Below, one piece after another: positions 29,576 through 38,736 of a DNA stretch of 64,000 nt. The translations under genes and the position numbers were made by a program. The stretch is from a virus (taxonomy: Duplodnaviria; Heunggongvirae; Uroviricota; Caudoviricetes): IMG/VR virus record IMGVR_UViG_2687453522_000001; one strand, written 5' to 3'. Positions within the stretch are counted from its first letter, which is position 1, and each line of letters starts with the position of its first letter. The notes beneath the pieces are model-generated. The model did not search any database and was not told where the DNA came from. It was given only the letters and a program-made list of their open reading frames with translations.

Positions 29576-30473
29576 GCACTGGAAAAACATTACTATTTAT
29601 AAACTTTCTCGTGAAGCGGATCTGACCGACTTAGAAGATAAAAAGAAAATGATCCTTTTCACGCCATGCGGTAGTCAGGATATGGCCAAGTTCGGTTTTG
29701 TATCTCCATTTGGTGATAATTCCGAAGTTATCGCTATGCATGGAAATGGTTTTATCCTTGTTGAAGCAAAGCGCGAAACAAAAATCCTTCCCCCGCCGGT
29801 TATCCAGCGAGCTATTCAAGAAAAAATTGAAAAACTCGAGCAAGAACAAGCGCGTAAACTGAAGAAAACAGAGAAGGACTCCCTGAAAGACGAAGTTCTG
29901 CATTCTCTTCTGCCACGGGCTTTTTCAAAGTTTTCTGTTATCCAGGCGATCTACGACGGTTCAACTAAACGTATCTATATCAATGCCAGCGCGCGGCAGG
30001 CAGAGGATATGCTCGCGCTTATGCGTAAATCTCTGGGTTCTCTTCCTGTTGTTCCCCTAAGTGTTGAAAATCCCATTGAATTAACGCTGACCGACTGGGT
30101 ACGTGATGGTAGTGCTCCACAGGGATTTCAAATGGGGGATGCGGCAGAACTTAAGGCAGTGCTTGAGGATGGCGGTATTGCCCGAGTGAAAAAGCAGGAT
30201 TTGGGAAGCGATGAAATTTCCACACACCTGGAAGCTGGCAAGCTCGTTACTAAGTTGGCACTCGACTGGCAGAACCGCATTAAATTTACACTGGACCATA
30301 ACTTCAGCCTTACCAGCGTCAAATTTGCGGATGAATTGCTTGAGCAGAACTCTGATATTGATAGTGAAGATGTTGCGCAGCGACTGGACGCAGATTTCTT
30401 CCTGTTGACCAGTGAAATTTCGTGCCTGGTTGATGCTCTGGTAAATGCCCTTGGTGGAGAGGCTAAGCAGTGA
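29568..30473 (+). CDS. hrdC: RdgC-like recombination-associated protein
   Basis: N-terminus [16 protein letters not shown]...[17 protein letters not shown] resembles E. coli RdgC; the track ORF start at 29454 is an N-terminal over-extension. Confidence 0.8.
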
Positions 30474-32734
30474 AAGAGCTGTGCTATGGATCTGTTTGCA
30501 GTGGAATTGAAGCCGCGAGTATTGCCTGGGAACCGTTGGGTATGCGTCCGGCGTGGTTTGCTGAAATCGAGCCTTTTCCATCTGCCGTTCTTGCGCACCG
30601 CTGGCCCCATGTCGCCAACCTTGGCGACATGACAAAACTTGCCAAAAAAGTCCTGGCTGGGGAAATCGAATCCCCTGATGTGCTCGTCGGGGGTACGCCT
30701 TGTCAGGCATTCAGTATCGCGGGCTTACGTGGTGGGCTTGATGATGAACGCGGCGCGCTAACTTTGAAGTATGTGGAGCTTGCAAATGCAATTGACGACA
30801 AACGGTCTGAGTCCTTCCTCAAACCGACAGTTATCGTCTGGGAAAATGTCCCAGGAGTCCTGTCATCGGCAGATAACGCCTTCGGATGTTTCCTTGCCGG
30901 ATTGGCTGGAGAAGATGCGCCATTTGAACCAGGTGATCGACCTGAATCAGGAAAAAGTAACGCGTTCTGGCGGTGGGATGGCAAAACCGGTTGCCATGCT
31001 CCAAAGTGGCCGCAGTGTGGTTGTATTTATGGACCGCAGCGAAAGGTGGCCTGGAGAATCCTTGATGCCCAATACTTCGGAGTGGCACAACGACGCCGAC
31101 GCGTGTTTGTTGTCGCAAGTGCTCGAACAGACTTCGATCCCGCAACGGTACTTTTTGAGTTCGAAGGCGTGCGCCGGAATATTGCGCCGAGCCGAAAAAA
31201 GAAGGAAATCGCTTCCGCCATTACTGCAAATGGCGCTGCAATCAGTGGCGAAAGCCTAAATCCATGCCTACACGCTGGCATGTCCCCCGGTATGAAATCG
31301 ACGAAATCCGTAAACGGTTTCAGGATGGCGGCATTTGGGGAATATATTGACGATGAAACCGCATTGACAGTAAAGGCAAGAGACTTTAAAGATGCCACTG
31401 ACCTTGCCGTTTTTAGCAGCACTGGAGCAGGTTTTTGGTCAGAAGGGCATGGTACATTGCGGGCGCGTGAGCAAGAAAGCCATGAGCATCTTGTTACATT
31501 GGCTTTTCCTGAGCGTATGAGTGGTACACAACATGCAGCAACTAAGAATACTTCACCATCTCTAATGGCTCAAAATCCAACTGCTGTTTGCTATGAAGTA
31601 AGAAACGAAGAAGTAGCTGTCCGCCGTCTTACCCCTGTCGAATGTGAGAGACTTCAAGGTTTTCCTGATGGGCATACATTGATCCCTACGGAAAAGCGTA
31701 AAAAAGTTAATTCAGATGAACTGGCATATCTGCACAATCACTATCCAGATTTAAGCGAAGAAGAGGCCGCAATGCTTGCAGCTGACGGACCGCGTTACAA
31801 AGCGATCGGCAATAGTATGGCGATACCAGTAATGCGCTGGATTGGCGATCGGATTGCCAAGGCTGCATGTCGGCAGAAGGAAGGGAGTGAAACAAAAGAG
31901 CGAAAAGTTAAACCAGCGGCAGAATTCGAACGGTCCATATTCAAATGGGCTGGTGGAAAATTTGGTGTTCTGGAACAAATCTTTCGCTATTTGCCAGAAG
32001 GGAAGCGCCTGATTGAACCTTTCGTTGGTGGCGGAGCTGTCTTCATGAATGCCGGATACCAGGAAAATCTGCTAAATGATGTGAATGCTGACCTGATTAA
32101 CTTTTACAAGACTCTGCAACGCGAGACGCATTCACTTATCACACTGGCGCATCGTTTCTTCCAGGACTACAACACACAGGAAGGATACCTGGCAGTACGG
32201 AATGCGTTTAACAAACAAGTCTATGATGATTTACATCGCGCAGCGGCGTTTTTGTTCCTGAACCGACATTGTTTTAACGGATTGACGCGTTACGACCAGG
32301 CCGGTGAGTTCAATGTCGGTTACGGGAAGTATAAAACTCCGTATTTCCCATTACAGGAGATGGAAGCCTTCCTCGGTGCGGAAGGGCGGTCTGAGTTTGT
32401 ATGCGGTGATTTTGCTGCGGTGATTGAAGCTGCCGGAGAAGGAGATGTCATCTTTTGCGATCCGCCGTATGAACCGCTCCCAAATACAGAGGGATTCACG
32501 AACTATTCCGGTCATGACTTTAAGTTTGAAGAGCAAAAACGCCTGGCGTCTCTGTTGACGGATGCTCATCGCCGAGGTGCAAAGGTTCTCATTACTAACA
32601 GTGGCGCGCCAAACATCAGAGAACTTTATCAGGACAGTGGCTTCAGAGTGGAACCTCTTTTTGCCAGACGTTCTGTGTCTTGTAAGGGGGACACTCGAGG
32701 TGTTGCTCATGACGTTATAGCAATATTGCTCTAA
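30470..32734 (+). CDS. dmt: bifunctional DNA methyltransferase: N-terminal C5-cytosine MTase fused to C-terminal Dam-like N6-adenine MTase
   Basis: 754 aa; [11 protein letters not shown] and ENVPG (C5-MTase) in the N-terminal half; FVGGGAV and FCDPPYEP in the C-terminal half. Confidence 0.85.
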
Positions 32735-32740
32735 TAAATT
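32724..32740 (+). promoter_or_regulatory. C1-type operator overlapping the dmt stop codon
   Basis: ATTGCTCTAATAAATTT, exact match to the recurring 17-mer. Confidence 0.55.
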
Positions 32741-32918
32741 TATTAGTGTAATATCGCCTCAATGAATCGTGATTTATAGAGCGATTTAGCTGTTAGCCGC
32801 GACAGGCGCGGCGGCAAGTATGGCGGGGTAGTGACTCCTTCCCCCTCATGACGCCGAGTTGCCAGGTTGACCATACGCCTAAGTGGCAACACCGAAGTGC
32901 GTTACGAGCTTCCAGTTT

Positions 32919-32945
32919 GCCCATCTTCGGGTGGGCGTTTTTTTC
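32919..32945 (+). terminator. rho-independent terminator
   Basis: GCCCATC-TTCG-GGTGGGC followed by GTTTTTTT. Confidence 0.55.
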
Positions 32946-33409
32946 AGGGTTTTCGTCATGGTTAGCGACTTTGCGGCGGTTTAGAAACTGACCATTAAAG
33001 TAAATGCAAACGATGATCTGATGATGGTAGCGGCCTAAGAAGCCAGACGCCACGGGGTATGAGTCGTCCCCCGTCAAAAAATCGACCGCAGAGTGTCCCC
33101 GTCTGTGTATTAGGGAACGGGGAGGCACAACAGGTAAGGGCGCTGGTGTGATTAACCAGATGAACGAGAAGGGGCCATCTGTTGGTCAGCGTCCTTTCCT
33201 GTTGCGTCTTCTTTTCAGCGTAACAGCGGTGCTTAACAGCACTTTGGGTACAGTTCCACGAATTTACGGGTATATCCCGTCATGCTGAAAGCGCTAATCA
33301 CGCTGGAAGCCAGGGTTATGCATCCCCTGTTACCGAATTGCAGCCAGGGCGCGGTGCGCCGAAAAGCATACGGAGGTGGAAGCCCTCGCCGGAGACGTAC
33401 CCGGCAAGT

Positions 33410-33485
33410 GATGGTGTAGCTCAGCGGTTAGAGCGGTTGACTGTTAATCAACGGGTCGATGGTTCAAATCCATCCACCATCGCCA
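33410..33485 (+). tRNA. tRNA-Asn (anticodon GTT)
   Basis: 76-nt cloverleaf: acceptor GATGGTG/CACCATC, anticodon loop CTGTTAA, T-loop TTCAAAT, encoded CCA. Confidence 0.85.
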
Positions 33486-33487
33486 AT

Positions 33488-33563
33488 GCCGGTTTAGCTC
33501 AGTTGGTAGAGCGCCTGCCTTGTAAGCAGGATGTCAGCGGTTCGAGTCCGTTAATCGGCACCA
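33488..33563 (+). tRNA. tRNA-Thr (anticodon TGT)
   Basis: 76-nt cloverleaf: acceptor GCCGGTT/AATCGGC, anticodon loop CTTGTAA, T-loop TTCGAGT, encoded CCA. Confidence 0.85.
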
Positions 33564-33569
33564 GCACAA

Positions 33570-33674
33570 CAGGTAAGGGTATTTTGCGACGTCGGAGATC
33601 GCCGAGCTTGGCAGAGGGTTCGAATCCCTACGAAGTACCCTTACCGTTGTGATGAATGCGCAGGCTGATGCGCG
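33570..33674 (+). repeat. structured repeat unit A (stem-loop with tRNA T-arm-like core)
   Basis: CAGGTAAGGGTA...TACCCTTACC 10-bp stem around a loop containing GAGGGTTCGAATCCCT; followed by the conserved tail GTTGTGATGAATGCGCAGGCTGATGCGCG. Confidence 0.5.
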
Positions 33675-33836
33675 AAAGACATTGCAGCTATTGCGGAAAA
33701 GAGCTGTTCGGCGGGGCAATTAAACGCCCGTGAGAGTCTGAAATAACCGCAAGCCGGAGATCAGCACCGGTCATCACAACACAACAGGTTGTACTGCACC
33801 CATTTTGTTGGACGATGAAATGGAATAGCCCCTAAT

Positions 33837-34358
33837 ATGTCAAAGCCAAAATACCCTTTTGAAAAGCGCCTTGAAGTCGTGAATCACTACTTCACAACTG
33901 ATGATGGTTACAGGATCATCTCGGCACGTTTTGGTGTCCCCCGAACCCAGGTCAGGACATGGGTTGCCCTCTATGAAAAACATGGAGAAAAAGGTTTAAT
34001 TCCCAAACCTAAAGGCGTTAGTGCTGATCCAGAGTTGCGTATTAAGGTCGTGAAAGCTGTGATCGAGCAGCACATGTCCCTTAATCAGGCTGCTGCTCAC
34101 TTTATGCTTGCTGGTAGTGGTTCTGTAGCCAGGTGGCTGAAGGTCTATGAAGAGCGCGGAGAAGCTGGTTTACGCGCGCTCAAGATTGGCACCAAAAGAA
34201 ACATTGCAATATCAGTTGATCCAGAAAAAGCGGCATCAGCATTGGAGCTGTCAAAAGACCGACGCATTGAGGATCTTGAAAGGCAAGTTCGATTTCTTGA
34301 AACGCGGCTTATGTATCTAAAAAAGCTGAAAGCCTTAGCTCATCCCACGAAAAAGTGA
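33837..34358 (+). CDS. insJ: IS150 transposase OrfA (InsJ)
   Basis: 173 aa MSKPKYPFEKRLEVVNHYFTTDDGY..., HTH-containing OrfA. Confidence 0.9.
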   Translation: MSKPKYPFEKRLEVVNHYFTTDDGYRIISARFGVPRTQVRTWVALYEKHGEKGLIPKPKGVSADPELRIKVVKAVIEQHMSLNQAAAHFMLAGSGSVARWLKVYEERGEAGLRALKIGTKRNIAISVDPEKAASALELSKDRRIEDLERQVRFLETRLMYLKKLKALAHPTKK

Positions 34359-35206
34359 AAGTACTCAACGAGCTAAGGCAGTTTTATCCTCTTGATGAGC
34401 TTCTCAGGGCTGCGGAGATACCGCGCAGTACGTTTTATTATCATCTAAAGGCTCTCAGCAAGCCTGACAAGTATGCGGACGTTAAAAAGCGTATTAGTGA
34501 GATTTATCACGAGAATAGAGGCCGATACGGATACCGTAGGGTAACGCTGTCTCTTCATCGAGAAGGGAAACAGATTAACCATAAAGCTGTTCAGCGCCTG
34601 ATGGGAACCCTCTCACTTAAAGCAGCGATTAAGGTCAAGCGATACCGCTCTTACAGAGGAGAGGTAGGGCAAACCGCCCCTAATGTTCTCCAAAGAGATT
34701 TCAAGGCTACGCGGCCAAACGAGAAGTGGGTTACCGATGTTACTGAATTTGCAGTCAATGGGCGCAAGCTGTATTTGTCTCCAGTAATAGATCTCTTCAA
34801 CAACGAAGTTATTTCTTACAGCCTTTCGGAAAGACCAGTGATGAACATGGTTGAGAATATGCTCGATCAGGCATTCAAAAAGCTTAATCCTCACGAGCAT
34901 CCTGTTCTGCACTCTGACCAGGGATGGCAGTATCGTATGAGAAGATATCAAAATATCCTTAAAGAACATGGTATTAAACAAAGCATGTCCAGAAAAGGCA
35001 ATTGTCTGGATAATGCTGTGGTGGAGTGTTTCTTTGGAACCTTAAAGTCGGAGTGTTTTTATCTTGATGAGTTCAGTAATATAAGCGAACTGAAGGATGC
35101 TGTTACGGAATATATTGAATACTACAACAGCAGAAGAATTAGCCTGAAATTAAAAGGTCTGACTCCAATTGAATATCGGAATCAGACCTATATGCCTCGT
35201 GTTTAA
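34355..35206 (+). CDS. insK: IS150 transposase OrfB (InsK), DDE catalytic domain
   Basis: 283 aa in the -1 frame relative to OrfA, overlapping its 3' end. Confidence 0.9.
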
Positions 35207-35230
35207 CTGTCCAACTTTTTGGGGTCAGTA

Positions 35231-35302
35231 CAGGTAAGGGCATTCTCCCTTATGGGGCTTGGCTTAAATGCATCGAGTGCTCTTACCGTTGTGATGAAGT
35301 GC
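35231..35302 (+). repeat. structured repeat unit B (interrupted at its 5' end by IS150)
   Basis: CAGGTAAGGGCA...TGCTCTTACC stem then GTTGTGATGAAGTGC tail; the IS150 target GGT lies inside CAGGTAAG. Confidence 0.5.
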
Positions 35303-35437
35303 AGCTCTTTGAAGCAACCAGAAGATAAGCATCTGGCTTCACAACATAAACCGCAGGAACGACCAATAAACGGTAGTCCGTATGGAGAACACCCCGTTGA
35401 GGAAGAGGCCTGGCCGGAACCGTAACCGGCACTACAA

Positions 35438-35550
35438 CGTTGAGAACACTGGCGTAACGGGGTCATATCCCAATCTACGAATAAATGTTGCGTTGCAGCG
35501 TGACAACCAGTGTTCTCAACATTGTGGTGAATGCACAGGCTGATGTGCCG
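35438..35550 (+). repeat. structured repeat unit D (14-bp inverted repeat plus conserved tail)
   Basis: GTTGAGAACACTGG ... CCAGTGTTCTCAAC enclosing GTAACGGGGTCATATCCCAATCTAC; followed by ATTGTGGTGAATGCACAGGCTGATGTGCCGC. Confidence 0.5.
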
Positions 35551-35713
35551 CAACTACAGTAGTGCGCGCTTTGCGGGGCTTGCTACAACCCTGTGTCGGA
35601 GTTCAGCACCGACCATCACAGTTTGATTCTCTGGCATGAGCATAACGCTGAAATAAGTCCAGCCTGGTGCGGCCCGATCACCCGCCGTTAGCTCCACGAA
35701 ACGGAGCACGTAA

Positions 35714-35798
35714 CAGGTAAGAGCATTCTCCTGTAACGGGTTCATATCCCAATCTACAGGTCCACCAAGAATGCTCTTTCCGTTGCGGTGAATGCGGC
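35714..35798 (+). repeat. structured repeat unit C
   Basis: CAGGTAAGAGCATTCT ... AGAATGCTCTTTCC stem around GTAACGGGTTCATATCCCAATCTAC; tail GTTGCGGTGAATGCGG. Confidence 0.5.
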
Positions 35799-35937
35799 TA
35801 AGCGCACGCGGGGAAATGGTTATATCAGTCCATTCATTTCTCCTTGTTTCCCCGTCCACGGTGGATAACCAGCCAAAGGACACCGGGAGGCACCCGGCAC
35901 CGCAGCTTTTTTATTCGTTAAATAATGGAGTGAGAGG

Positions 35938-36174
35938 ATGCAGAACAATCCGAACAAATGTCGAACGCTATGGGTGCGGTTATATATTTATGCCGTCCTC
36001 TGTTTGATTGTGTCACTGGTTCTGTATGTTTGGCTTTTGCCAAATATGATCTCATCTAACAGCACAATACTTGTATTGTTGGGAGTCCTTCTCGCGCTCA
36101 TTTACCCGGCTTTCGCAGTAGTCTTTTTTCGTGAAAAAACCAGGAAATTAATTAATGAAAAAAACGTTGATTAG
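35938..36174 (+). CDS. small two-helix membrane protein
   Basis: 78 aa with two hydrophobic segments; 3' end overlaps the start of the lipoprotein gene. Confidence 0.5.
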   Translation: MQNNPNKCRTLWVRLYIYAVLCLIVSLVLYVWLLPNMISSNSTILVLLGVLLALIYPAFAVVFFREKTRKLINEKNVD

Positions 36175-36982
36175 TGCAGCGATTATTTTGGGTTCTTTAT
36201 GTCTGACCGGATGCGATCGGGTAGAGCCAGGTAACGTAGGGATCAAAGTAAATAAGCTGGGGGATGATAAAGGTATCGGTGAAGTAGTTGGCGTTGGTCG
36301 CTACTGGACAGGCTTGAATACTGAAGTTTATATCTTCCCGACCTTTAAGCAAATGAAGACATACGATGAGCCGTTCAGCTTCCAGATGAGCGACGGAACA
36401 ACCATTGGTTACCACATCGGCGTAGCCTACAAGGTTGATCCAGCAAAAGTCACAACGGTATTTCAGACCTATCGCAAAGGTGTAGATGATATTACTGATA
36501 CCGATCTACGCCAGAAGGTTGCAGATGCTCTGAACCGGTTAGCCAGCAAAATGACCACCGACAAATTTATCGACGGTGGCAAATCTGAATTGCTTGATGC
36601 AGCCCTTAAAGACATTCAGGAAGAAATGACGCCAATCGGCATTCAGGTGATGAGCCTCTCTTATGTAGGTAAGCCAGAATACCCGCCAACAGTTATTGAC
36701 AGTATTAACGCCAAAGTCACGGCAAACCAAAAAACCCTGCAACGCGAGCAAGAGGTCAAACAACGTGAAGCAGAGGCCAACATGCTGCGCGCGGAAGCTG
36801 CCGGACAGGCTGATGCTATTCGCACAAAAGCCCAGGCCGAAGCTGATGCCATTCGTTTACGTGGTGAAGCTCTGCGCCAGAACCCCGGTGTTATGGAGTT
36901 GGAAGCGATCAACAAATGGAACGGTACATTACCGCAGTATATGACCAGTAATACCGCTGTTCCGTTTGTTCCGGTGAAATAA
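36155..36982 (+). CDS. plp: SPFH/band-7-like lipoprotein
   Basis: 275 aa; lipobox LCLTGC after signal peptide MKKTLISAAIILGS; C-terminal Ala/Glu/Gln/Arg-rich coiled-coil typical of SPFH proteins. Confidence 0.65.
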   Translation: MKKTLISAAIILGSLCLTGCDRVEPGNVGIKVNKLGDDKGIGEVVGVGRYWTGLNTEVYIFPTFKQMKTYDEPFSFQMSDGTTIGYHIGVAYKVDPAKVTTVFQTYRKGVDDITDTDLRQKVADALNRLASKMTTDKFIDGGKSELLDAALKDIQEEMTPIGIQVMSLSYVGKPEYPPTVIDSINAKVTANQKTLQREQEVKQREAEANMLRAEAAGQADAIRTKAQAEADAIRLRGEALRQNPGVMELEAINKWNGTLPQYMTSNTAVPFVPVK

Positions 36983-37009: not shown

Positions 37010-37085
37010 GGCCCTTTAGCTCAGTGGTTAGAGCTGGCGACTCATAATCGCACGGTCACCGGTTCAAGTCCGGTAGGGGCCACCA
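37010..37085 (+). tRNA. tRNA with CAT anticodon (Ile2/Met type)
   Basis: 76-nt cloverleaf: acceptor GGCCCTT/AGGGGCC, anticodon loop CTCATAA, T-loop TTCAAGT, encoded CCA. Confidence 0.85.
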
Positions 37086-37365: not shown

Positions 37366-38736
37366 GTGCTAATGTCTGCATCCCCTCTTGAATCCATGCC
37401 AAATTCCCTTAGTGCAGAACAAGCTGTACTTGGTGGCTTAATGCTTGATAACTGCCGCTGGGATGAAGTTGCAGATCGTATAGTTGCTGATGATTTTTAT
37501 ACCAGTGCTCATCGTGAAATTTTCAGTGAGATGGAGAGGTTATTAAGTCATGGCAAACCGATTGATTTGATAACACTTGCTGAAGCACTTGAACAGAACG
37601 GTAAATTAGAACGCGCCGGTGGTTTTGCGTACCTTGCGGAGATGTCAAAGAACACGCCCAGCGCGGCAAATATTTGTGCTTATGCGGATATCGTTCGTGA
37701 ACGCGCGGTTGTTCGTGAAATGATTTCCGTCGCAAATGAAATAGCCGAAGCTGGATATGCGCAGGATGGCAGGGGCAGCAATGAATTGCTGGATATGGCC
37801 GAGCGCCGCGTTTTTGAAATAGCTGAAAAACGACAAAAGAGCGGTAGTGGTCCAAAAGATATCGCCAGCATTCTCGATGCAACGGTATCTCGCATAGAAG
37901 AGTTGTTTCAGCGACCACATGATGGTGTAACGGGGCTTGATACGGGATTTACCGATCTCAATAAGAAGACGGCAGGGCTTCAGCCGTCCGATCTCATCAT
38001 TGTCGCCGCCCGCCCATCTATGGGGAAGACCACGTTTGCGATGAATCTCGTCGAAAATGCCGCAGTTCGTAACGATAAGCCCGTATTGGTTTTTAGCCTT
38101 GAGATGCCGAGCCACCAGCTGATGATGCGCTCACTGGCTTCTCTTGCACGCGTTGATCAGACTCGTATTCGGACAGGGCAACTTAACGACGAGGATTGGG
38201 CGCGGGTTTCTGGCGCAATGGGTATTCTGTTGGACAAGCAGAATATTTTTATTGATGACTCAAGCGCCCTGACACCTACAGAGCTTCGTTCCCGCGCTCG
38301 TCGTGTTTATAAAGAAAATGGTGGTTTGAGCATGATTATGATCGACTACCTGCAACTTATGCGCGTCCCCGAGCTGCAAGATAACCGAACGCTGGAAATT
38401 GCCGAGATTTCTCGCTCACTGAAGGCGTTGGCGAAGGAATTACAAGTACCGGTGGTGGCATTGTCACAACTTAATCGATCGCTTGAACAGCGTGCGGACA
38501 AACGACCGGTAAATTCAGATTTACGTGAATCAGGAGCAATTGAGCAGGACGCAGACCTGATCATGTTTCTGTATCGCGACGAAGTTTATCACCCGGATAG
38601 CGAAATGAAGGGCATTGCCGAGGTAATTATCGGAAAGCAACGAAATGGCCCAATTGGCACGGTGAGATTGGCTTTTAACGGCCAATACTCACGGTTTGAT
38701 AACTATGCTGGTGCTGACTGGCAAGAGGATTATTAA
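37366..38736 (+). CDS. ban: DnaB-family replicative DNA helicase
   Basis: 456 aa; Walker A ARPSMGKTTF, Walker B-like IMIDYLQLM and a RecA-like C-terminal domain. Confidence 0.9.
   Translation: MLMSASPLESMPNSLSAEQAVLGGLMLDNCRWDEVADRIVADDFYTSAHREIFSEMERLLSHGKPIDLITLAEALEQNGKLERAGGFAYLAEMSKNTPSAANICAYADIVRERAVVREMISVANEIAEAGYAQDGRGSNELLDMAERRVFEIAEKRQKSGSGPKDIASILDATVSRIEELFQRPHDGVTGLDTGFTDLNKKTAGLQPSDLIIVAARPSMGKTTFAMNLVENAAVRNDKPVLVFSLEMPSHQLMMRSLASLARVDQTRIRTGQLNDEDWARVSGAMGILLDKQNIFIDDSSALTPTELRSRARRVYKENGGLSMIMIDYLQLMRVPELQDNRTLEIAEISRSLKALAKELQVPVVALSQLNRSLEQRADKRPVNSDLRESGAIEQDADLIMFLYRDEVYHPDSEMKGIAEVIIGKQRNGPIGTVRLAFNGQYSRFDNYAGADWQEDY

Follow-up and report, generated by a model that had tools for sequence, protein, structure and literature searches.

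The 64-kb stretch of DNA analysed here (the window) carries an intact copy of IS150 in a P1-like IncY phage-plasmid, inserted at a target GGT within a non-coding structured-RNA array in the leader of the ban operon, a reading to which we assign a probability of about 92%. The insertion is real and private to one sequence, and comparison with its relatives suggests that it is recent. The element itself is a standard, intact and common E. coli insertion sequence, and its arrival is an already known kind of event.

Identity and anatomy of the element

The element is 1443 bp long and agrees at 1443/1443 bases with the annotated IS150 of K-12 MG1655 (NC_000913.3 3720633-3722075); the RefSeq copies named "IS3-like element IS150" are likewise 100% identical to it. 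The initial annotation had described a complete 1443-bp IS150 with TGTACTG...CAGTACA ends and an OrfA/OrfB pair bearing the slip site A_AAA_AAG. Alignment to the reference returned exactly the same coordinates, and the ends, the protein domains and the open -1 frame were all found. Another member of the IS3 family is ruled out by the 100% identity with K-12 IS150.

33790..35232, + strand: complete IS150 (IS3 family), by identity to K-12 IS150
33790..33820, + strand: left terminal inverted repeat, beginning TGTACTGCACCC, by comparison of the ends
35202..35232, + strand: right terminal inverted repeat, closing with GGGGTCAGTACA, by comparison of the ends
33837..34358, + strand: orfA, 173 aa, helix-turn-helix DNA-binding protein (InsJ in K-12), by HTH_28 and related domains
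34355..35206, + strand: orfB, DDE integrase core (InsK in K-12), by rve, rve_2 and HTH_21
34319..34325, + strand: A_AAA_AAG heptamer for programmed -1 frameshifting, with a predicted stem-loop after it, by frame check and downstream fold

The tips TGTACTG and CAGTACA belong to an imperfect inverted repeat in which 22 of the 31 outermost positions match. The two reading frames are in 0/-1 phases, as expected of IS150 (IS3 family); the slip site is read in the orfA frame, and from it the -1 frame continues without a stop, giving a 456-aa OrfAB fusion. IS150 is known to use frameshifting (Vogele et al. 1991, as cited in PMC11708052). The K-12 element (insJ/insK; IS3 family, IS150 group) is alike in sequence, ends, orfA/orfB, slip site and length, and differs by location only, lying at the hokA/sokA locus between flanks (GTA and AAC) that form no 3-bp repeat. 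IS150 is present in 2864 of 5426 complete E. coli genomes, and neither a second copy nor other related ends occur within the 64-kb window.

Target duplication and empty site

33787..33789: left GGT copy of the 3-bp target-site duplication, a single GGT in empty sites
35233..35235: right GGT copy, whose 3 nt also begin the inner stem of hairpin H2 (see below), a single GGT in empty sites

The trinucleotide ACA closes the IS and also precedes the target GGT, and the flanks overlap by 6 bp (ACAGGT) in the BLAST comparison; when the canonical IS150 ends are used, the duplication is the 3-bp GGT. Such a duplication is typical of IS150 insertion, and PMC11708052 documents 3 bp for IS150, with new insertions in the LTEE alike in this respect.

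Deletion in silico of the IS together with one GGT yields a 1455-bp sequence that is found in nature: more than 30 P1-like plasmids have it at 100% identity, and the phages RCS47 and vB_EcoM-813R1 at 99.7-99.9%. GGT had been proposed to flank the element on both sides, and removal of the element to restore a complete copy of a repeat family; both proposals hold, with a single GGT in the empty alleles and the restored sequence occurring naturally in those plasmids.

The rest of the window matches the P1-like IncY plasmid pCREC-629_2 at 99.994-100% identity over 62.5 kb with about 2 mismatches, and the IS plus one GGT is the sole indel or structural difference between them. The occupied junction occurs in none of the PLSDB plasmids, complete E. 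coli genomes, GenBank phages, IMG/VR records or GTDB genomes, and IS150 occupies this position in none of the P1-like records searched. Among about 1000 plasmids with the region there are only 11 extra places, and the occupied junction is in none. The earlier suggestion of a recent insertion thus agrees with an IS identical to the K-12 copy, a near-identical empty plasmid and an occupied allele absent from five collections.

Position in the ban operon and possible effects on expression

The insertion site lies inside the C1-repressed leader of the ban operon, whose order is Pban/Op72, tRNA-Asn, tRNA-Thr, the RNA module array, the SPFH gene, tRNA-Ile2(CAT) and ban. Op72 and Pban follow dmt, the tRNAs and ban share one orientation, and the gene order is that of P1. 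The gene map also agrees with the initial annotation in that the IS parts the tRNA-Asn/Thr pair from the membrane-protein gene, the SPFH-lipoprotein gene and the third tRNA.

32725..32752: Op72a/b, operator of the C1 repressor, which overlaps the Pban promoters and opens the operon, sequence equal to the P1 operator
33410..33563, + strand: tRNA-Asn(GTT) and tRNA-Thr(TGT), upstream of the IS, by tRNA search
35938..36982, + strand: 78-aa ORF with two transmembrane segments and 275-aa SPFH-domain lipoprotein (lipobox LTGC), downstream of the IS, by ORF and domain calls
37010..37085, + strand: tRNA with anticodon CAT, called Met by ARAGORN and tRNA-Ile (Ile2) by the P1 annotation and PGAP
37366..38736, + strand: ban, the distal gene of the operon split by the IS, encoding a DnaB-like helicase, by homology and P1 annotation

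During lytic growth, Pban transcripts would have to traverse 1.4 kb of IS before reaching the distal modules, the SPFH gene, tRNA-Ile2 and ban, and partial polarity on the distal ban operon is therefore possible. A DicF-like terminator (32915-32945) already stands between Pban and the tRNAs, ahead of the IS site. In a lysogen, the 3' end of IS150 may give weak read-out toward the SPFH gene, tRNA-Ile2 and ban, and with it low constitutive transcription.

The insertion would be adaptive if read-out from the right end of IS150 made the C1-repressed distal operon constitutive in the lysogen. The allele would then be a natural analogue of the "bac" mutants of P1. The IS is oriented toward the SPFH gene, tRNA-Ile2 and ban, and a scan of the + strand found no terminator-like site at its right end or ahead of the downstream genes, so that no such site separates it from the distal operon. 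No sigma-70-like promoter was found from the right end of the IS to ban, which leaves a hybrid or outward promoter without sequence support, and the curated P1 annotation lists no promoter on the + strand between Pban and ban. In the LTEE, new IS150 copies were able to switch on silent downstream DNA, but the effect past the IS 3' end was modest and occasional, with downstream transcription in 12/55 cases (PMC11101190), and in a reporter study the terminal 150 bp of IS150 had no detectable promoter activity (PMC12095673). With the allele private to one sequence and no sign of its spread or selection, we regard an adaptive role as unlikely. The event was probably neutral or nearly so, since the region is hypervariable in P1-like elements, the lysogen keeps the ban operon repressed and dnaB+ hosts can do without ban. 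Modules of the array have been gained and lost among P1, P7, D6, Ro157 and RCS47, with mosaic variants in about 1000 plasmids.

The structured-RNA array

The array comprises long hairpins (H0-H4) and cloverleaf-like units, of which the following lie around the target hairpin H2.

33120..33212, + strand: hairpin H0, upstream of tRNA-Asn, z = -6.2
33565..33651, + strand: hairpin H1, immediately past tRNA-Thr, z = -5.4
33646..33780, + strand: unit U_A, cloverleaf-like RNA module with closing helix GTTGTGATGA/TCATCACAAC, by covariation
35431..35528, + strand: hairpin H3, of different stem sequence and the same architecture, z = -7.6
35521..35622, + strand: unit U_C, by covariation and alignment
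35709..35787, + strand: hairpin H4, z = -6.3
35782..35906, + strand: unit U_E, STnc100-like and under the Rfam threshold, by RF02076 score, z = -3.2

The repeat family is real: GCACAACAGGTAAGGG occurs four times, as does a 34-nt family represented by CTTACCGTTGTGATGAATGC, others recur too, and the 12-mer ACAGGTAAGRGY has 5 occurrences against 0.71 expected. The hairpins are structured, with folding z-scores of -5.4 to -7.6. For U_A and U_C folded alone the z-scores are not significant (-1.8 and -0.65), and the case for their structure therefore rests on covariation. Homologues of U_A with compensatory changes occur in mEp460, phiSTEC1575, D6 and P7, and in the 5'/3' closing helix 4 of 10 positions show compensatory pairs when the units of the window are compared with homologues from these four and from Kp4882. 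In mosaic form, the array is common to P1-like, lambdoid/Stx, Klebsiella, Salmonella and Cronobacter phages. Roughly 1000 plasmids and 114 phages gave matches.

Rfam searches of the region returned only the three tRNAs above threshold, with STnc100 and permuted tmRNA below it. U_E scored 37.8-38.3 bits (E ~3e-6) against STnc100 (RF02076), over model positions 31-147 of 206 only; this is below the gathering score of 47, so that U_E is not a member by Rfam, and U_A and U_C were not reported. The Rfam models of DicF, rtT and tRNA gave no match on the modules, and H0-H4 gave no Rfam tRNA match, as tRNA or pseudo-tRNA, at E<=5. The T-arm-like motifs GGGTTCGAATCCC and GGGTTCATATCCC are present; ARAGORN with relaxed thresholds made inconsistent calls on the modules. 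In D6 and P7, a true tRNA-Ser occupies the slot held here by H2. Matches to miRNA-type Rfam models were set aside as a mere reflection of the long hairpins.

Two known systems offer a comparison. The rtT repeats of the E. coli tyrT operon follow tRNA-Tyr. They resemble the present array in being tandem repeats of ~180-260 bp that are transcribed together with the tRNA genes ahead of them and probably freed by processing, but the sequences are dissimilar, the Rfam rtT model gave no match, and the present units are composites of hairpin and cloverleaf-like elements. STnc100/PasD (RF02076; bioRxiv 10.64898/2026.05.13.724894) is a prophage sRNA family, and U_A, U_C and U_E are likewise phage-borne; the features they share with its model are a closing helix, a GGUGAAU hairpin on the 5' side and, beside the helix on the 3' side, a hairpin of the CCGGGAGGCACCCGG type. 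Unlike STnc100, whose function has not been assigned (PMC12370729), the units here are arrayed and alternate with long hairpins and tRNA genes.

Tentatively, and at somewhat short of even odds, we read the region as a hitherto unrecognised array of structured RNAs, polycistronic and transcribed together with the phage tRNAs, in which H0-H4 alternate with cloverleaf-like units remotely related to STnc100/PasD and which has been mis-annotated as Plp/Upl. A tmRNA-tag-like mini-ORF lies nearby. The RNA array and this mini-ORF are more curious than the insertion itself.

The target hairpin

The IS starts 9 nt past unit U_A, at the base of H2.

33782..33789, + strand: 5' basal strand of H2, ACAACAGGT, left of the IS, by repeat comparison and folding
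35233..35292, + strand: remainder of H2, inner stem-loop GGTAAGGGCAT...GTGCTCTTACC plus GTTGT, predicted to be foldable after the insertion

The repeat sequence is split by the IS, and the disturbed part of H2 is only its 5-bp basal extension. Since the duplicated GGT supplies the first three pairs of the inner hairpin, this hairpin is retained on the right-hand side of the IS. The initial annotation had placed the element within one structured repeat unit; folding supports this and refines it, with the inner H2 hairpin predicted to be intact.

Such a position could suggest targeting, in which IS150 prefers the repeat sequence or the hairpin or cruciform DNA that it forms and did not arrive here by chance. 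The insertion is exactly at the foot of a long inverted repeat, the ACA ahead of the target GGT equals the last 3 nt of the IS, and PMC11101190 reports an insertional hotspot for IS150 in the LTEE. Only one of the five similar copies is occupied, however, the roughly 1000 plasmids with the region and their 11 extra places have no occupied junction, and a preference is not demonstrable from one insertion event. We consider targeting quite improbable.

Minus-strand reading frames

The IS might instead matter as a disruption of plp, a minus-strand gene for a putative lipoprotein, whose loss or alteration would be the relevant effect. Both plp and upl are annotated on the minus strand across the region in P1 (NC_005856) and RCS47, and the homologue of the plp ORF in the window (35203-35553, 116 aa) now terminates within the IS. 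Against a real gene, the Plp proteins of P1 and RCS47 have 91 N-terminal residues in common, after which a 196-bp indel, its length not divisible by 3, makes them wholly different; the homologue in Ro157 has in-frame stops, and the TTG start is lost in P7 and D6. In P1 the ORF is antisense to, and overlaps, tRNA-Thr. It has no Pfam or NCBIfam match, PGAP calls no CDS at the site, and the ORF crosses long palindromic hairpins, which open a frame on the other strand too. Among close relatives, Plp and Upl are not conserved as coding sequence. The plp and upl ORFs of P1 are, on these comparisons, probably spurious and laid over a conserved structured-RNA array, and disruption of a real plp is very unlikely to be what the insertion means.

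Origin of the insertion

IS elements are a common source of misassembly, yet the misplacement of a chromosomal IS150 into the plasmid contig is extremely improbable here, because both junctions are exact at the canonical IS ends and the 3-bp duplication is perfect, which is the signature of real transposition and disfavours a chimeric join.

For a genuine insertion of IS150 into the phage-plasmid, the donor would most likely have been a chromosomal IS150 of the E. coli host. The OrfAB transposase would be made by -1 frameshifting at A_AAA_AAG, as established for the family, would excise the IS as a circular copy (copy-out) and would integrate this circle at the new site (paste-in). Transposition by a circular intermediate is known for the family of IS150 (PMC11708052). 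In contrast to the LTEE insertions, which are chromosomal and laboratory-born, that in the window is in a natural phage-plasmid and a repressor-controlled operon.

Discussion

P1 has carried other insertion sequences: according to Lobocka et al. 2004, IS1 reportedly resides in P1, and IS5 in P1 c1-100 mod749::IS5. These residents are alike to the present element as host insertion sequences carried without loss of plasmid maintenance, and differ from it in family and in site.

The insertion itself is of little weight, being a textbook example of an IS that is very common in E. coli. It represents the movement of a host IS150 onto a P1-like phage-plasmid, a vehicle able to bring the IS to new hosts by lysogeny. 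It also provides a clean, dated, single-difference ban operon mutant relative to pCREC-629_2, which could be used to ask if the distal operon requires Pban and if read-out from IS150 de-represses it. Checking the site further exposed plp and upl of the P1 reference as probable artefacts over a conserved structured-RNA array. Lastly, if the modules of this array are functional RNAs, such as processing signals, decoys or regulators, the IS150 allele would be a ready natural polar mutant for them.

Identity and structure of the inserted element

The element at 33790-35232 is 1443 bp long, begins with TGTACTGCACCC, ends with GGGGTCAGTACA, and is identical at 1443/1443 positions to the annotated 'IS150' of E. 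coli K-12 MG1655 (NC_000913.3 3720633-3722075, insJ/insK); many RefSeq copies named 'IS3-like element IS150' are also 100% identical to it. This alignment bears out the initial annotation, which had described a complete 1443-bp IS150 with TGTACTG...CAGTACA ends, OrfA/OrfB and a slippery A AAA AAG, and it rules out a different IS3-family member with different ends. The features of the element and its flanks are as follows.

33787-33789, left copy of GGT, directly before the IS
33837-34358, + strand, orfA (173 aa; HTH_28, HTH_29 and HTH_Tnp_1 domains)
34319-34325, + strand, heptamer A_AAA_AAG, in the orfA frame
34355-35206, + strand, orfB (283 aa; rve, rve_2, rve_3 and HTH_21 domains)
35233-35235, right copy of GGT, directly after the IS

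The two reading frames overlap, and the -1 frame is open from the heptamer, which would permit a 456-aa OrfAB fusion; a stem-loop is predicted shortly 3' of the heptamer. The IS ends form an imperfect inverted repeat, with 22 of the first 31 positions matching. IS150 occurs in 2864/5426 complete E. coli genomes (median 2 places per genome), and no further copy was found in the 64-kb window. In the IS3 family, OrfAB made by -1 frameshifting releases a circular copy of the element, which is then integrated at a staggered cut of 3 bp (PMC11708052). By this route, OrfAB from -1 frameshifting would have generated a circular IS150 copy, presumably from a chromosomal IS150 of the host, and inserted it at GGT. 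The K-12 reference copy, at the hokA/sokA locus (flanks at 222-233 and 1677-1688 of the K-12 segment L006), has GTA on the left and AAC on the right; because these 3-bp flanks do not match, it has no visible target duplication, in contrast to the GGT/GGT of the window copy.

The empty site and the age of the insertion

Deletion of the IS and one GGT yields a 1455-bp sequence, with GGT single. More than 30 natural P1-like plasmids carry this sequence at 100% identity, and phages RCS47 and vB_EcoM-813R1 match it at 99.7-99.9%. One of the plasmids with the empty site, pCREC-629_2 (NZ_CP024817.1, IncY, 96,990 bp), was compared with the whole window by BLAST, which gave two blocks.

Window 1-33789, pCREC-629_2 58609-92397, 99.994% identity
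Window 35230-64000, pCREC-629_2 from 92392 across the origin, 100% identity

With about 2 mismatches, located in the left 33.8 kb, the IS and its duplication are therefore the sole structural difference from pCREC-629_2 in 62.5 kb. The two blocks share 6 bp, ACAGGT, because ACA both closes the IS and precedes GGT in the target; when the canonical IS150 ends are taken, the duplication is GGT, and its length agrees with the 3 bp on record for IS150 (PMC11708052). Searches for the occupied junction in PLSDB plasmids, complete E. coli genomes, GenBank phages, IMG/VR and GTDB representative genomes gave no match. The insertion is thus real, recent and private to the window sequence, and the recent origin and GGT duplication proposed initially both hold. 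The source of pCREC-629_2 is human urine from South Korea, and its PGAP annotation includes a TnpB-family gene, darA-like genes, a SIR2-family gene and phd/doc.

Position within the ban operon

The window belongs to a P1-like phage-plasmid, and the gene order around the IS is as follows.

30470-32734, dmt
32725-32752, C1 repressor operator Op72a/b with the Pban promoters, identical to P1
32915-32945, terminator-like hairpin ending the 'dicF-like' region of the P1 annotation
33410-33563, tRNA-Asn and tRNA-Thr
Between tRNA-Thr and the 78-aa ORF, about 0.9 kb of non-coding repeats
35938-36982, 78-aa two-TM ORF and SPFH-domain lipoprotein gene
37010-37085, CAT-anticodon tRNA
37366-38736, ban, DnaB-like helicase

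This confirms that the IS separates the tRNA-Asn/Thr pair from the membrane-protein and lipoprotein genes and the third tRNA. The latter is called Met by ARAGORN and tRNA-Ile (ileX-like, lysidine-modified) by the curated P1 annotation and PGAP. Neither the curated P1 annotation nor a promoter scan contains a + strand promoter between Pban and ban, and the IS therefore lies within the ban operon and in its orientation, with Pban about 1.06 kb upstream and ban 2.1 kb downstream. The 78-aa ORF (35938-36174), with two predicted TM segments and a 20-nt overlap with the start of the SPFH lipoprotein gene, could encode an NfeD-like partner of the SPFH protein; the annotation of phage Ro157c2YLVW includes this ORF, and PGAP does not call it in pCREC-629_2.

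A leader built of hairpins and multi-branch units

Among the repeats of the leader, GCACAACAGGTAAGGG and a 34-nt family (CTTACCGTTGTGATGAATGC...) are each present in four copies and a 36-nt family in three; there are also several long inverted repeats, and a 12-mer, ACAGGTAAGRGY, occurs 5 times against 0.71 expected. Together the repeats make up an array, at 33120-33789 and 35233-35906, in which long hairpins (H0-H4) alternate with cloverleaf-like units (U_A, U_C, U_E).

33120-33212, H0, folding z = -6.2
33565-33651, H1, folding z = -5.4
33646-33780, U_A
Insertion target, H2, folding z = -6.2 when reconstituted
35431-35528, H3, folding z = -7.6
35521-35622, U_C
35709-35787, H4, folding z = -6.3
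35782-35906, U_E

For none of the five hairpins did a shuffled sequence fold equally well. At its base the stem has a conserved sequence (ACAACAGGTAAGRG / CTCTTWCCGTTG), and the distal stem varies in sequence yet remains paired; H3 keeps the same architecture with an entirely different stem sequence. The three units share one predicted multi-branch fold, in which a closing helix of 9-10 bp is followed by an AAU linker, a 5-bp hairpin, a variable centre and a hairpin adjoining the 3' strand. Across phages, compensatory (double) changes occur at 4/10 closing-helix positions.

U_A, GTTGTGATGA / TCATCACAAC
96-98% identical homologues in mEp460 and phiSTEC1575, GTTGTGGTGA / TCACCACAAC
D6 and P7, GTTGTGGTGG / CCACCACAAC
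U_E, GTTGCGGTG / CACCGCAGC
Second P7 unit, ATTGCGGTG / CACCGCAAT

Rfam recognises U_E only, weakly, as STnc100 (RF02076; 38 bits, E ~3e-6, gathering score 47); U_E thus resembles the STnc100/PasD prophage sRNAs but, being below threshold, is not a member. Our best guess, a tentative one, is that the array may serve the processing or stability of a polycistronic tRNA transcript, or give rise to sRNA-like products from it.

The IS begins 9 nt past the last base of U_A, within the basal 5' strand of H2 (ACAACAGGT^AAGGG), and GGT forms the first three pairs of the H2 inner stem (GGTAAGGGCAT...GTGCTCTTACC). Because GGT is duplicated, the complete inner hairpin still folds to the right of the IS, and the sole loss to H2 is of two pairs from its 5-bp basal extension, ACAAC/GTTGT. 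In structural terms the IS parts two modules and destroys neither. The initial description of an insertion precisely into one structured repeat unit, whose removal restores a complete copy, is therefore right at the level of sequence, where the repeat family is confirmed, but not structurally, since the H2 inner hairpin survives.

The leader also carries, within a segment at 32884-33336, a tmRNA-tag-like mini-ORF at 33006-33038 on the + strand, GCAAACGATGATCTGATGATGGTAGCGGCCTAA, which encodes ANDDLMMVAA* and has a resume-codon-like AGTAAAT in front of it. There the Rfam model for permuted tmRNA gives 24-26 bits against a gathering score of 47, and ARAGORN reports a 'permuted tmRNA' at a relaxed threshold only, with a tRNA-like domain that does not convince. 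P1, RCS47, Ro157 and D6 share the segment in conserved form; P7 has ANDDLMMAAA*.

Probable shuffling of modules among phages and plasmids

About 1000 plasmids carry mosaic variants of the region. P1 and D6 are without U_A and H2 (a 196-bp deletion), P7 and Ro157 are without H1 and U_A, D6 and P7 have a tRNA-Ser in place of H2 behind the same leader that precedes H2 in the window, and Ro157 has an extra tRNA-Tyr between tRNA-Asn and tRNA-Thr. Modules are gained or lost between close relatives exactly at common repeat ends (window 33565-33789), which suggests cassette-like shuffling through recombination between repeats. Pieces of the array also appear, at 75-98% identity, in lambdoid and Stx phages, where they lie in unannotated DNA shortly 3' of cI. 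U_A itself is 95-98% identical to DNA about 400 bp downstream of cI, on the same strand, in lambdoid/Stx2 phages including mEp460, Stx2a_WGPS2 and IME207 (homologues at 2014-2148 of phage segment L007 and about 2001-2137 of L008), a striking exchange between P1-like and lambdoid phages. A hairpin-then-unit composite lies directly behind tRNA genes in Klebsiella phage ST147-VIM1phi7.2, between the genes for a DUF1133 protein and lysis S; it has the same placement in the unannotated Kp4882-1. Cronobacter phage ENT47670 has such a composite about 230 nt downstream of a Q-like antiterminator gene, with no feature annotated downstream.

In the annotations of P1 and RCS47, two minus-strand ORFs, 'plp' (putative lipoprotein) and 'upl', cover this array.

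3235-3804 of P1 (NC_005856), - strand, plp/upl
35203-35883 of the window, - strand, homologue

The window plp homologue now stops within the IS. We judged plp and upl spurious as genes for six reasons: the Plp proteins of P1 and RCS47 have 91 residues in common and then diverge completely, because the 196-bp module indel shifts the frame; the Ro157 homologue has in-frame stops and those of P7 and D6 are without a start codon; the P1 plp ORF overlaps tRNA-Thr in antisense; no Pfam or NCBIfam match was found for either ORF; PGAP calls no CDS between tRNA-Thr and the SPFH gene; and palindromic hairpins give alike open frames on both strands. The P1 'plp'/'upl' are probably a mis-annotation over a structured RNA array.

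Possible consequences of the insertion

The 1.4-kb IS now stands between Pban and the distal modules, the SPFH gene, tRNA-Ile2 and ban, so that Pban transcripts of these features have to cross it; partial polarity in lytic growth is therefore possible. The 3' end of the IS faces these same genes, and a sequence scan found no + strand terminator-like site in between. In the E. coli long-term evolution experiment, new IS150 copies turned on silent downstream DNA in 12/55 cases, modestly (PMC11101190), and the terminal 150 bp of IS150 had no promoter activity in a reporter (PMC12095673). Weak constitutive read-out from IS150 in the lysogen is possible but unproven. As ban is dispensable in dnaB+ hosts and the region is plastic among P1-like elements, the insertion is expected to be close to neutral.

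The event is a recent IS150 insertion, ordinary and of an already known kind, with nothing new but its location; the array around it is less commonplace. The main value of the insertion is twofold: it is a naturally occurring single-difference mutant, and it draws attention to a mis-annotated RNA array.
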